Shown: one piece after another, positions 11,377-54,259 of the stretch
Numbering within the stretch: the first letter of the stretch is position 1
Layout of the letters: every line of letters begins with the position of its first letter
Assembly (NCBI RefSeq): GCF_057098645.1
Contig: NZ_CM169472.1
DNA length: 64,000 nt
Direction: 5' to 3' (one strand)
Made by a program: the position numbers and the translations under genes
The notes under the pieces: generated by a model
The model's database searches: none
What the model saw: the letters and a program-made list of their open reading frames with translations, nothing else
Told to the model about the DNA's origin: nothing

Positions 11377-12915
11377 TCACCCAACGCCTTTCGCTGTAAA
11401 CGGCGGTTTCGCAAACCAAACCAAAACCGTAAGTAAGATAAAAGCAATAGCCGCCATACGGAAAATCTCATTTGCAGAAATAGAAAGTGACTGCTGGGTT
11501 ATTTCATTATTAATTTCATTAAGAACTCCTGAAAGCGAACCATAGTATTTATCCATAATTTGTGACGATGAATTAAATACAGGGTTAAATTGATCGATGG
11601 TTGCTGTCAACTGACTATGGTGTAACGATTCGCGTCGCCCCCACAGCGTCATTGTCAACGATGTACCAACTGATCCTGACAAGGTACGAAAAAAATTACT
11701 CATACTCGAGGCATTGGCAAATTTATTATCTGGCAAGCCTGAAAACGAAATCGTTGTTAAGGGTAAAAAGAAACAGGCAACGGCGAATCCCTGAAAAAAC
11801 TGCGGCAAAATGATACCTGTAAAATCAATCGTTGGCATAAATGTCACAGAACGCCAGTAATAGCAAACCGCATACATCAAAAAACTAAATGTCACTAACA
11901 ACCGCATGTCTATTTTGTTGCCATAACGTCCTATCAAAGGTGAAATTAATAGTGGCATGATGCCGATGGGCGCATAAGCAAGTCCGGCCCATATCGCATT
12001 ATACCCCATCGTTTCCTGGAGTAACTGCGGCATAAGGACGATCGCTCCAGAGTAAAATAAATACGCGCATGTGATACTCACAATACCAATGGTGAAATTA
12101 CGGGACTTAAACAAACTGAGATCAAGAATCGGGTTCTCTGAGGTCGACTCCCAAATGACTAAAGAGATCAGAGAAATAACTGATACTACTGTTAATATTA
12201 TTATTGTACTCGAGTTGAACCAATCCAGATCGCGCCCTTTATCAAGCATAATTTGCAAGCCACCAACACCGAGCACTAACAGGGTCAGTCCTGGTAGATT
12301 CATTTTGACCGGTGAAGTCTCAGTTTCTCTTCCTTTAAGTAAGGTTAAGCATAATGTCAGGACGATAATCCCCATAGGGACATTGATTAAAAATATCCAA
12401 CCCCAGCTAAAGTTATCACAAATATAGCCGCCCAATATCGGCCCACATATCGGAGCGATAATCACGGTCATTGACCATAATGCCAGAGCAAATGTCCTTT
12501 TTTCTGGTGGATAATTCCTTAATAATAAACTCTGTGACAGTGGAATTAACGGCCCCGCCATTAACCCCTGAACGACTCTAAAAAATATCAGCACATCAAG
12601 ATTGGTCGATAAACTACACATTAAGGAAGACAGCGAAAAAAAAGTGACTGAAAGTAAAAATAACCTTAATTCGCCTATTCTTTGTGCCAGCCTGCCGGTA
12701 ACAGGGATCGCAATGGCATTTGCTACGCCAAACGAAGTGATAACCCAGGTACCTTCGTCTGTTGATGCTCCCAGAAAGCCAGATATTGTCGGTATTGCGA
12801 CGTTAGAAATAGTGGAATCCAACATTTGCATAAACGTCGCTAATGACAATGCAATAGTGACGCACCATAACGTCCCACCGGTTAATGGTGCCGGAGTTGA
12901 TTTAGTGATTGCCAT
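11377..12915 (-). CDS. emrY: EmrY MFS multidrug efflux pump, 512 aa
   Basis: 14-TMS MFS-like ORF directly downstream of emrK. Confidence 0.9.
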   Translation of the reverse strand: MAITKSTPAPLTGGTLWCVTIALSLATFMQMLDSTISNVAIPTISGFLGASTDEGTWVITSFGVANAIAIPVTGRLAQRIGELRLFLLSVTFFSLSSLMCSLSTNLDVLIFFRVVQGLMAGPLIPLSQSLLLRNYPPEKRTFALALWSMTVIIAPICGPILGGYICDNFSWGWIFLINVPMGIIVLTLCLTLLKGRETETSPVKMNLPGLTLLVLGVGGLQIMLDKGRDLDWFNSSTIIILTVVSVISLISLVIWESTSENPILDLSLFKSRNFTIGIVSITCAYLFYSGAIVLMPQLLQETMGYNAIWAGLAYAPIGIMPLLISPLIGRYGNKIDMRLLVTFSFLMYAVCYYWRSVTFMPTIDFTGIILPQFFQGFAVACFFLPLTTISFSGLPDNKFANASSMSNFFRTLSGSVGTSLTMTLWGRRESLHHSQLTATIDQFNPVFNSSSQIMDKYYGSLSGVLNEINNEITQQSLSISANEIFRMAAIAFILLTVLVWFAKPPFTAKGVG

Positions 12916-25709: not shown

Positions 25710-25814
25710 CGTCTGTCACATGGTAGACTGGCCCCCTGAATCTCCAGACAACCAGTATCACTTAAATAAGTGATAGTCTTAATACTAGTTTTTAGACTAG
25801 TCATTGGAGAACAG

Positions 25815-26180
25815 ATGATTGATGTCTTAGGGCCGGAGAAACGCAGACGGCGTACCACACAGGAAAAGATCGCAATTGTTCAGCAGAGCTTTGAACCGGG
25901 GATGACGGTCTCCCTCGTTGCCCGGCAACATGGTGTAGCAGCCAGCCAGTTATTTCTCTGGCGTAAGCAATACCAGGAAGGAAGTCTTACTGCTGTGGCC
26001 GCCGGAGAACAGGTTGTTCCTGCCTCTGAACTTGCTGCCGCCATGAAGCAGATTAAAGAACTCCAGCGCCTGCTCGGCAAGAAAACGATGGAAAATGAAC
26101 TCCTCAAAGAAGCCGTTGAATATGGACGGGCAAAAAAGTGGATAGCGCACGCGCCCTTATTGCCCGGGGATGGGGAGTAA
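25815..26180 (+). CDS. insC: IS2 InsC (OrfA) transposase component, 121 aa
   Basis: [52 protein letters not shown]... Confidence 0.92.
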
Positions 26181-27043
26181 GCTTAGTCAGCCGTTGTCTC
26201 CGGGTGTCGCGTGCGCAGTTGCACGTCATTCTCAGACGAACCGATGACTGGATGGATGGCCGCCGCAGTCGTCACACTGATGATACGGATGTGCTTCTCC
26301 GTATACACCATGTTATCGGAGAGCTGCCCACGTATGGTTATCGTCGGGTATGGGCGCTGCTTCGCAGACAGGCAGAACTTGATGGTATGCCTGCGATCAA
26401 TGCCAAACGTGTTTACCGGATCATGCGCCAGAATGCGCTGTTGCTTGAGCGAAAACCTGCTGTACCGCCATCGAAACGGGCACATACAGGCAGAGTGGCC
26501 GTGAAAGAAAGCAATCAGCGATGGTGCTCTGACGGGTTCGAGTTCTGCTGTGATAACGGAGAGAGACTGCGTGTCACGTTCGCGCTGGACTGCTGTGATC
26601 GTGAGGCACTGCACTGGGCGGTGACTACCGGCGGCTTCAACAGTGAAACAGTACAGGACGTCATGCTGGGAGCGGTGGAACGCCGCTTCGGCAACGATCT
26701 TCCGTCGTCTCCAGTGGAGTGGCTGACGGATAATGGTTCATGCTACCGGGCTAATGAAACACGCCAGTTCGCCCGGATGTTGGGACTTGAACCGAAGAAC
26801 ACGGCGGTGCGGAGTCCGGAGAGTAACGGAATAGCAGAGAGCTTCGTGAAAACGATAAAGCGTGACTACATCAGTATCATGCCCAAACCAGACGGGTTAA
26901 CGGCAGCAAAGAACCTTGCAGAGGCGTTCGAGCATTATAACGAATGGCATCCGCATAGTGCGCTGGGTTATCGCTCGCCACGGGAATATCTGCGGCAGCG
27001 GGCTTGTAATGGGTTAAGTGATAACAGATGTCTGGAAATATAG
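26138..27043 (+). CDS. insD: IS2 InsD (OrfB) transposase catalytic component, 301 aa
   Basis: DDE integrase-core ORF overlapping insC in the -1 frame. Confidence 0.92.
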
Positions 27044-27121
27044 GGGCAAATCCACATGGCAGGTGAGCAATCATGTCTGATGCTGATGTGAACACCTGCC
27101 CAAATGAGCCATCCTGACCCA

Positions 27122-48764: not shown

Positions 48765-48840
<76 letters not shown>

Positions 48841-48879
48841 ACGATGCGTTTACGTACCAAATTTGCTGGGTGCAAAATT

Positions 48880-48955
<76 letters not shown>

Positions 48956-49968: not shown

Positions 49969-51177
49969 TCAGGCTGTCGCCTGAATCATTTCGGTGGGTT
50001 CCTGCTTCAACGAGTGGCCTGACTGCACCATCTCTCCACAGGCAAGAACGGCGTGCCCCGCCGCTAAAATGTTACGAGCGCCGTTTACATCGGCGCTCGC
50101 TGTATATCCACATACCTGGCATCTGAATTTACTTTGTGACAGGCGATTTTCTTTCGCTGTATGACCACAGCACGCGCAACGCTGGCTTGTGTACGCTGGC
50201 GGAACAGCAAGCACCTGACCGCCTCGCCAGAGCTGCTTGTACTCAAGCTGGCGGCGCATTTCATACCAGCCCTGATCCAGTATCGAACGGTTTAAACCTG
50301 ATTTTGCCCGGACATTGCGCCCCGGCTGGCTGACCGTACCCGCTGCTGACTTTGACATGTTGCTGACCTTCAAATCCTCAATGACTATCATTGCGTGGTT
50401 TTTGCTGACGGTCGTTGTGACTTTGTGAAGGTAGTCTCTGCGGATATTTGCGGTACAGGAATGCAGTCGCTGTATTTTGCGTTTCTGCTTCTGCCAGTTA
50501 TTGCTGAATTTGACCTTGCGGCTTAACTGTCGCTGAAGTCTCGCCAGCGTCTTCTGGTTTTTCTGAAAACTGTTTACAGGCTCAAAGACTGTGCCATCTG
50601 ACAGCGTGGCGAGTTTAGCCACGCCAGCATCCAGTCCGACCATTGATGCTGAAGGGTGAACCGGAGTTGATACTTCACTTTCTGTCTGAATACTGATGTA
50701 CCACTTACCGCAGGACTGGCTGACAGTGACATTTTTCACAACACCCGTGACCTGACGGCTGTTCCGGTAGCGCATCCAGCCAAGTTTCGGCAGAAAAATA
50801 CGGCTGTTTTCCTGATCGAGCTTAACGCCCTGCTGGTAGCGGAATGCATCATTCTGTCCCCGCTTTTTGAATCGGGGAAAAGCAGCCCGCTTCTGGAAGA
50901 AGTTTTTGTAAGCCCGCTCAAGGTCTTTCAGTGACTGTTGCAATGGCTGTGAGGGCGAATCTTTAAGCCATTGCGTTTCAGTGGCGTTTTTCCACTCAAC
51001 CAGCCAGGAAGCCATTTTCCCGTAAGGGATGTGTTTATTACCGGCCTCATGATTCTCATTCTGACGTGCCAGAGCACGATTGAAAACGAAACGACATGCA
51101 CCTGCGAAGCGCCTCATTTCACGCTCCTGTTGACCACCGGGTCTTAACTGGAATTTAAATGCCTGTAGTCGTTTCAC
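49969..51177 (-). CDS. tnpB: TnpB (IS605 OrfB family; RuvC-like RNA-guided nuclease fold), 402 aa, apparently intact
   Basis: RuvC motifs ([23 protein letters not shown]) and zinc finger CACCGH...CQVCG. Confidence 0.85.
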
Positions 51178-51184
51178 AGGCCAA

Positions 51185-51615
51185 ATGATACTTTGGTCTG
51201 TGAAAAAAGAAACCGATATCCGGCGTGGAAGGCATTGTGTTTTCCTGATGCATGTTCACCTGGTCTTTGTCCCAAATACTGACGCCAGGTTTTTGACCAT
51301 GACGCGACAGAAAAACTACGCACTTACTTTTCAAATGTATGTGCTGATTTTGAAGCTGAACTGGTTGAAATGGATGGCGAACCAGATCACGTCCATTTGT
51401 TAATTAACTATCCTCCCAAACTGGCGATATTCAGTCTGGTAAACAGCCTCAAAGGCATATCGAATAGGTTACTGCGACGAGATCGACCAGATATTGCAGT
51501 CAGGTATTACTACAAAGGCGTTATGTGGAGTCCTGGCTATTTTGCCAGTAGCTGCGGAGGTGCGCCAATATCCGTCATCCGCCAATACATTGAACAACAG
51601 CAAACACCTGGTTAG
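51185..51615 (+). pseudogene. IS200-type Y1 (HUH) transposase TnpA, disrupted by frameshift
   Basis: N-terminal part (HCVFLMHVHLVFVP) in one frame and C-terminal part (MDGEPDHVHLLINYPPKLAIFSLVNSLKG...WSPGYFASSCGGAPISVIRQYIEQQ) in another. Confidence 0.75.
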
Positions 51616-53355: not shown

Positions 53356-53384
53356 TTGACTCATTTTGAACTCTCCCTATAATG
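53356..53384 (+). promoter_or_regulatory. sigma70-type promoter of the valU-valX-valY-lysV tRNA operon (TTGACT-N16-TATAAT)
   Basis: Consensus -35 and -10 hexamers about 16 nt upstream of first tRNA. Confidence 0.6.
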
Positions 53385-53400
53385 CGACTCCACACAGCGG

Positions 53401-53476
53401 GGGGGATTAGCTCAGCTGGGAGAGCACCTCCCTTACAAGGAGGGGGTCGGCGGTTCGATCCCGTCATCACCCACCA
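53401..53476 (+). tRNA. valU: tRNA-Val (UAC), copy 1, with G at position 4
   Basis: 76-nt tRNA; differs from copies 2 and 3 only at position 4 (GGGGGATTAG vs GGGTGATTAG). Confidence 0.85.
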
Positions 53477-53520
53477 ACTACTTTATGTAGTCTCCGCCGT
53501 GTAGCAAGAAATTGAGAAGT

Positions 53521-53596
53521 GGGTGATTAGCTCAGCTGGGAGAGCACCTCCCTTACAAGGAGGGGGTCGGCGGTTCGATCCCGTCATCACCCACCA
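53521..53596 (+). tRNA. valX: tRNA-Val (UAC), copy 2
   Basis: GGGTGATTAGCTCAGCTGGGAGAGCACCTCCCTTACAAGGAGGGGGTCGGCGGTTCGATCCCGTCATCACCCACCA. Confidence 0.93.
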
Positions 53597-53642
53597 CTTT
53601 CTCGCCAGCTAAATTTCTTGTAAAAATGTGAAGTACCGAAGT

Positions 53643-53718
53643 GGGTGATTAGCTCAGCTGGGAGAGCACCTCCCTTACAAGGAGGGGGTCGGCGGTTCGA
53701 TCCCGTCATCACCCACCA
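53643..53718 (+). tRNA. valY: tRNA-Val (UAC), copy 3
   Basis: Identical to copy 2. Confidence 0.93.
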
Positions 53719-53722
53719 CTTC

Positions 53723-53798
53723 GGGTCGTTAGCTCAGTTGGTAGAGCAGTTGACTTTTAATCAATTGGTCGCAGGTTCGAATCCTGCACGACCCACCA
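53723..53798 (+). tRNA. lysV: tRNA-Lys (UUU)
   Basis: GGGTCGTTAGCTCAGTTGGTAGAGCAGTTGACTTTTAATCAATTGGTCGCAGGTTCGAATCCTGCACGACCCACCA. Confidence 0.93.
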
Positions 53799-53802
53799 AT
53801 GT

Positions 53803-53829
53803 AAAAAGGCGCCCTAAAGGCGCTTTTTT
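53803..53829 (+). terminator. rho-independent terminator of the tRNA operon (GGCGCC-ctaaa-GGCGC + T6)
   Basis: Hairpin and T-run directly after lysV. Confidence 0.75.
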
Positions 53830-53917: not shown

Positions 53918-54259
53918 ATGGCCACTATCTCTTCAACTTCAATTCCTTCCATACAAACACAGAGTAGTAACAGGGCATCACAAGGTAGCGATGTTGCTTC
54001 ACAAATCGCGCGGATAAGTCAGCAAATCATCAAACTCACTCAACAAATTAAAGAGATTGTAGACACTAGCGGCAGTGCTGAAGACAAACAAAAACAGGCC
54101 GAATTGATTCAACAGCAAATCACCCTACTGGAAACACAACTGGCGCAGTTGCAGAGACAGCAGGCAGAAAAGGCGCAGGAGAAAGAGCAGCGTTTGTCTC
54201 TGAATATATCCCTTCTAAATCCTGTTGAAAATACGACTCATATCGATATCTATATCTGA
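53918..54259 (+). CDS. small Q-rich coiled-coil protein, FlxA-like (113 aa)
   Basis: Ser/Thr-rich N-terminus then Q/K/E coiled-coil ([11 protein letters not shown]...[27 protein letters not shown]); GAGGA RBS; occupies the position of xapR-xapB-xapA-yfeN in K-12. Confidence 0.6.

Follow-up and report, generated by a model that had tools for sequence, protein, structure and literature searches.

The valU-valX-valY-lysV operon of Escherichia coli K-12 has its transcription start mapped 9 nt 5′ of the mature valU end. Its tRNAs are separated by RNase P alone, in 3′ to 5′ order, and a terminator is reported 3′ of lysV (PMC4176162). The five tRNA-Val(UAC) genes of K-12 are identical (PMC4176162), and the entire valUXY-lysV unit can be deleted from that strain (PMC11480407). 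The valine identity elements of bacterial tRNAs are U4-A69, G3-C70, A73, A35 and C36 (reviewed in PMC9976931). A 4:69 pair that is not Watson-Crick impairs valylation, according to Liu et al. (1997) and Horowitz et al. (1999) as these studies are represented in the same review (PMC9976931). E. coli tRNAs with unstable acceptor stems receive a poly(A) or CCACCA tag and are then degraded by RNase R (PMC5824355). The allele described here, with G in place of T at position 4 of the first tRNA of this operon, is a natural variant not known before of a very well known gene. No relevant earlier description of it was found in the literature, where the query 'valU' also matches 'value'.

The stretch of DNA analysed, referred to as the window, is 64,000 nt long. 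Three tRNA-Val(UAC) genes followed by a tRNA-Lys(UUU) gene were identified in it by ARAGORN and correspond to the valU-valX-valY-lysV operon; all features of the operon given here lie on the + strand. The promoter (53356–53383) was located by a consensus scan as TTGACT and TATAAT separated by a 16-nt spacer, with 11 of 12 consensus matches, and is unchanged between K-12 and the O145 genomes. The 9-nt leader removed by RNase P, ACACAGCGG, is placed at 53392–53400 from its sequence identity to K-12. Since the promoter and the leader are intact, valU (53401–53476) is presumably still transcribed with the operon. Spacer 1 (44 nt, 53477–53520), which is invariant within the lineage, leads to the intact valX (53521–53596), and spacer 2 (46 nt, 53597–53642) leads to the intact valY (53643–53718). 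The last gene, lysV, lies at 53723–53798 with an Rfam score of 79.2 bits. It is followed by a Rho-independent terminator at 53809–53829, GCGCC-CTAAA-GGCGC plus TTTTTT, which the hairpin scan listed on the − strand and of which the T tract is read on the + strand. The annotation of strain RM13516 is colinear with window positions 12666–64000, from emrK/evgAS through ptsHI.

Several other features surround the operon. An FlxA-like ORF of 113 aa follows lysV at 53918–54259. The A at 54206 gives I97 in this ORF, while V97 is found in all 25 fetched complete O145 genomes; I97 is common to the window, some draft assemblies and an ENA contig discussed below. Two identical tRNA-Ala(GGC) genes of the alaX/alaW type, 40 nt apart, occupy 48765–48955 on the − strand upstream of yfeC. 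Between yfeD and gltX lies an IS200/IS605 remnant at about 49969–51615, with a frameshifted tnpA and a TnpB/InsQ gene (coordinates from the RM13516 annotation). An IS2-like element at 25724–27052 sits just 3′ of ypdI, where RM13516 has no element. It contains InsC- and InsD-type ORFs (25770–27043) and 33-nt imperfect terminal inverted repeats at 25733–25765 and 27014–27046.

The first tRNA-Val copy starts with GGGGGATTAG, while the second and the third start with GGGTGATTAG. Over 76 nt, the sole difference of valU from valX and valY is G, not T, at position 4 (53404). This is an exact difference between otherwise identical repeats, and chance is not at issue. The partner of position 4, A69 (53469), is A in all three copies, and its retention beside G4 yields a G4·A69 purine-purine mismatch in copy 1. 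Infernal flags the 4:69 pair of valU as non-canonical, and solely that pair; six of the seven acceptor-stem pairs are canonical, and the G53-C61 pair closing the T loop is intact. The mismatch had been claimed by an earlier sequence-only reading, and the copy comparison and the Infernal flag bear it out. The same reading had proposed comparing tRNA scores among the three copies; in the Rfam tRNA family (RF00005), copy 1 scores 61.1 bits and copies 2 and 3 score 65.9 bits each, with a gathering score of 29. In addition to a score above this threshold, valU retains the anticodon UAC at positions 34–36 and an encoded 3′ CCA. The change was also said to lie in a run of nine G at 53397–53405, which is wrong: 53397 is G and 53398 is C, and the run consists of seven G at 53399–53405, two from the leader and five from tRNA positions 1–5. 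At the same length, K-12 reads CAGC-GGGGG-T-G-ATTAG and the window reads CAGC-GGGGGGG-ATTAG. The equal length shows that the change is a plain T>G transversion with no insertion or deletion.

The distribution of the allele was determined in 5,426 complete E. coli genomes. A 60-mer spanning the leader and the tRNA start has exact matches in 20 of them, and a 57-mer comprising promoter, leader and the seven G and ending at tRNA position 12 has exact matches in 22. With four further O145 genomes that carry a T-less sequence with six G, the carriers number 26, and T is kept in 5,399 other genomes sharing the valU leader context. O145 is the serotype of every carrier for which one is stated (H28, non-motile, or with the H type not given). 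The carriers come from many laboratories in at least six countries (USA, Belgium, Japan, Canada, Spain and Korea), and include the ST6130 strain RM13516 as well as ST32 clades C, F and H (clades after PMC7067040). Because G4 is present in both ST6130 and ST32, the change dates from before their divergence. The draft assembly GCA_015672185.1, which likewise has G4, matches the window without a difference over 6.3 kb. None of the 26 complete carriers is the same as the window, which has a private A at 54206 and the IS2-like insertion.

A homopolymer error of sequencing or assembly in a true GGGTG, as the sequence-only reading had considered, is extremely improbable. The site does lie within a G run, and four long-read O145 assemblies disagree on its length, with six instead of seven G. 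This length difference, taken alone, looks like homopolymer noise, and could be either true slippage or long-read homopolymer error. Nevertheless, the T is missing in the six-G assemblies too, and relative to K-12 one base is exchanged with none gained or lost. The identical allele occurs in 26 independently assembled complete genomes across laboratories, platforms and years, plus drafts, and is confined to one lineage, whereas the 5,399 genomes with the same leader context have T. The artefact is therefore rejected. The comparison with valU of other E. coli genomes, also proposed by that reading, thus places the T-less allele in the O145 lineage. As for its suggestion of a real polymorphism affecting processing or charging, the allele is real and occurs in every lineage member examined, while an effect is deduced from the literature and from folding.

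The leader G run also varies in length among E. coli with T4, being 5 G in K-12 and 6 G in H9Ecoli and others. T4 is nevertheless present in one ENA metagenome contig (ERZ28749823:contig_13542) that shows 99.8% identity to the window over 6.3 kb, shares its I97 allele and has a split yfeR. The contig may represent a sister lineage from before the mutation, a reversion by gene conversion with valX or valY as donor, or an artefact of a mixed-strain consensus.

Position 4 and its partner are strongly conserved in other species. Searched for in species-representative genomes, the first 43 nt with U4 had at least 120 matching stretches, and the same 43 nt with G4 had none. The hosts of the U4 43-mer include Citrobacter, Klebsiella, Salmonella, Dickeya, Pectobacterium, Edwardsiella, insect endosymbionts and some non-enterobacterial Gammaproteobacteria. 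Among the matches listed, all 230 U4-type tRNA-Val copies from other species have both A69 and C61, and their T-stem changes are compensated. As in a pseudogene, the lesion of valU thus lies at a position conserved in homologues. Among metagenome contigs, the valU leader context was found with T4 in at least 120 and with G4 in none; these T4 hits are a control that the pattern is findable and not an E. coli baseline, and among the matches listed 49 of 90 full-length copies differ from E. coli in the tRNA body, being probably from other Enterobacteriaceae. Some metagenome tRNA-Val(UAC) genes behind the same leader have G69, giving a U4·G69 wobble; they differ from E. coli tRNA-Val at several other positions, and probably also belong to other Enterobacteriaceae.

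A single G·A mismatch between G-C pairs can fit into an RNA helix. Of the valine determinants, valU has A73, A35, C36 and G3-C70, while the U4-A69 element is missing. Nearest-neighbour folding gives cloverleaf energies of −29.8 kcal/mol with U4 (normal tRNA), −25.0 with G4 alone and −22.8 with both G4 and A61, and acceptor pair probabilities that fall from 1.0 to about 0.2–0.3 with G4, in predictions that leave aside tertiary contacts and modifications and in which the wild-type cloverleaf itself is not the minimum. Slipped registers are predicted for the G4 tRNA, one of them pairing G1-G2 with C75-C74, and its predicted minimum-energy fold has a refolded end in which the 5′ G run is re-paired with C74/C75. 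In the G4 precursor, a one-base slip that bulges A69 and pairs the leader G's with C74/C75 is predicted to be 2.9 kcal/mol better than the canonical register. G4 thus most probably reduces tRNA function. The gene is annotated as tRNA-Val everywhere. Pipelines that count it as a normal tRNA-Val would therefore overstate by one, in these strains, the gene-copy numbers used in codon-adaptation models.

Further changes have accumulated in valU among the relatives of the window. C61A, which breaks the conserved G53-C61 pair, is present in valU of 20 O145 carriers; C61 (53461) is intact in the window. Similarly, U17 (53417) is intact in the window and is A in at least one carrier, the Korean strain Z1323HEC0399. 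Strain Z1323HEC0422 matches the 57-mer but not the 60-mer, and must therefore differ somewhere in tRNA positions 13 to 30. The Rfam score falls to 55.6 bits with A61 alone and to 50.7 bits with G4 and A61 together; U17A is neutral to the Rfam model, the Z1323HEC0399 copy scoring 61.1 bits as with G4 alone. The other Val copies are intact in all 30 sequences compared (25 carriers, the window and four non-carrier E. coli genomes). Further lesions thus lie in valU only and its paralogues are intact, a pattern of pseudogenes, which supports the earlier suggestion of a decaying copy. Among the 25 fetched carrier genomes plus the window, two sites segregate in the 76 nt of valU vs one in 2,011 flanking nt (one-sided Fisher p = 0.004). 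The occurrence of G4 alone in ST6130 and of A61 in ST32 indicates that T4G came first and C61A second; G4 alone is found in RM13516/RM12761, UTME-3, C325 and the clade of the window. Imperfect matches to 88-nt queries numbered 206, 509 and 104 for valU, valX and valY, respectively, and are mostly spacer variants, uninformative on the tRNA bodies (99-nt queries were likewise tried).

C61A also occurs together with T4, in valU of two unrelated strains, 720632 (Pakistan) and MY1-8 (China). Their flanks are K-12-like and differ from one another. Second hits therefore need no prior inactivation by G4. C61A was seen in valU only and never in other Val copies, and its recurrence points to repeated mutation or selection at one site. 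Import of C61A from the attachment site of a phage or island was considered and found no support, with A61 in no viral contig vs seven viral contigs with a normal 3′ half.

The gene family is redundant, with a median of five tRNA-Val(UAC) genes per E. coli genome, and the array itself varies in size. Among the 26 carriers, the array holds three Val genes in 12, four in 13 and five in one. Across the genomes at large, array size was taken from the places of spacer 2, the copies of which equal the Val genes minus two; a 228-nt junction query was unfit for such counts, as it is fully covered in three-copy genomes too. Spacer 2 occupies 3,979 places in 3,919 genomes, with about 59 extra copies, of which 15 are in the O145 lineage. 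Thus 14 of 26 carriers have arrays of four or five Val genes; among about 3,893 other genomes sharing this spacer allele, the number is no higher than 45 (about 1%). This is a contrast of genome counts and not of events, suggestive and not a test since the carriers are one clone. The amplified unit is 122 bp, a tRNA-Val plus spacer 2 (window 53597–53718). MY1-8, with C61A and T4, likewise has four Val genes.

The reading we favor, with a probability of about 0.7, is that valU carries a T>G change fixed in O145:H28 that probably reduces function in a redundant gene, and that the gene is now decaying. The change would have arisen once, on the branch leading to E. coli O145:H28, and the conversion of GGGGG-T-G to seven G fits a misalignment (dislocation) error beside a homopolymer. 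It would replace U4-A69 by a G·A mismatch where the regularity of the acceptor helix is important to valyl-tRNA synthetase, and with G4 the 5′ strand could also shift its register against C70-C72/CCA. The likeliest outcome would be a tRNA that is poorly processed, poorly charged or unstable. Such damage may be tolerated since the genome retains at least four intact, identical tRNA-Val(UAC) genes. Under little constraint, valU would then decay, with C61A in ST32 and U17A in the Korean strain as putative signs of it.

Alternatively, G4 can be a neutral polymorphism in a gene that still functions, the G4·A69 tRNA being used about normally and the allele having hitch-hiked to fixation in a clonal pathogen. 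The four remaining valine determinants are present and the structure is otherwise undisturbed, the G4-only allele has stayed unchanged in several clades, and a clonal lineage makes neutral fixation easy. However, U4-A69 is invariant in the 230 homologous copies among the matches listed and is a listed identity element, the predicted loss of 4.8 kcal/mol comes with register ambiguity, and the clearly destructive C61A has been added in most of the lineage; we consider neutrality rather unlikely. A gain of function or altered identity, by mischarging or a regulatory role, has in its favour the capacity of acceptor-stem pairs to convey identity, and nothing more. The anticodon and the discriminator are unchanged, and the damage to G53-C61 in most carriers is the opposite of preserving a new role, which renders this proposal scarcely credible.

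A harmful allele would leave a different kind of record. If G4 were mildly toxic, for example through stalling of RNase P, unproductive binding of ValRS or a load on the decay machinery, silencing by C61A and compensation by tandem amplification would be favoured. In agreement with this, valU holds more of the polymorphism within the lineage than its flanks would lead one to expect, and large arrays are over-represented among carriers, on both the G4-only (C325) and the G4 plus A61 backgrounds. The unrelated C61A strain MY1-8 has four copies as well, and the title of a cited paper ascribes the birth of a new tRNA gene to large tandem duplications. Nevertheless, the numbers are tiny, with two second-site events, and the array-size contrast includes clonal relatedness. 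ST32 clade F has both lesions, yet three copies only; array size varies in unrelated genomes too, and heavy transcription may by itself raise the mutation rate of tRNA genes. A toxic G4 is thus doubtful. Equally doubtful is the fuller sequence of three events in O145:H28, a slippage-type G4, a selected C61A knock-out and a dosage restored by 122-bp amplification. If G4 is harmful, C61A in two unrelated strains would reflect a general selective or mutational peculiarity of the promoter-proximal gene.

On the favored reading, a probably function-reducing change in a redundant gene, valU may serve as a small natural example of the erosion of a redundant bacterial tRNA gene and of the expansion and contraction of a tandem array. 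Greater interest would attach to it only if selection had produced the second hits and the amplifications. As a practical outcome, G at 53404, present in 26 of the 5,426 complete genomes, cleanly marks the O145:H28 lineage by a single base, and in combination with C61A it sets every ST32 genome read (clades C, F and H) apart from those of ST6130.

In comparison with the K-12 operon, the locus, promoter, 9-nt leader, spacers, gene order and terminator are the same, and valU is identical in 75 of 76 nt. The difference is T4 there and the G4·A69 mismatch here; 3′ of lysV, an FlxA-like ORF follows in the O145 lineage whereas xapR follows in K-12. The engineered acceptor-stem variants of E. coli tRNA-Val, as far as they are described in the review, share with valU a disturbed 4:69 pair. 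They are laboratory G·U pairs studied in vitro, whereas the G·A of valU is natural and known from sequence. With the substrates of tRNA quality control (PMC5824355), valU would share a destabilised acceptor stem and a 5′ G run that can pair anew with C74/C75, a likeness that is purely predicted. In Pseudomonas fluorescens SBW25 (PMC7661048, PMC10954465), the lesions were laboratory deletions for which very large tandem duplications compensated, while here a natural point mutation is accompanied by a 122-bp unit, with a putative link between the two. Both systems nevertheless have in common a damaged member of a tRNA family and extra tandem copies of intact genes in its relatives.
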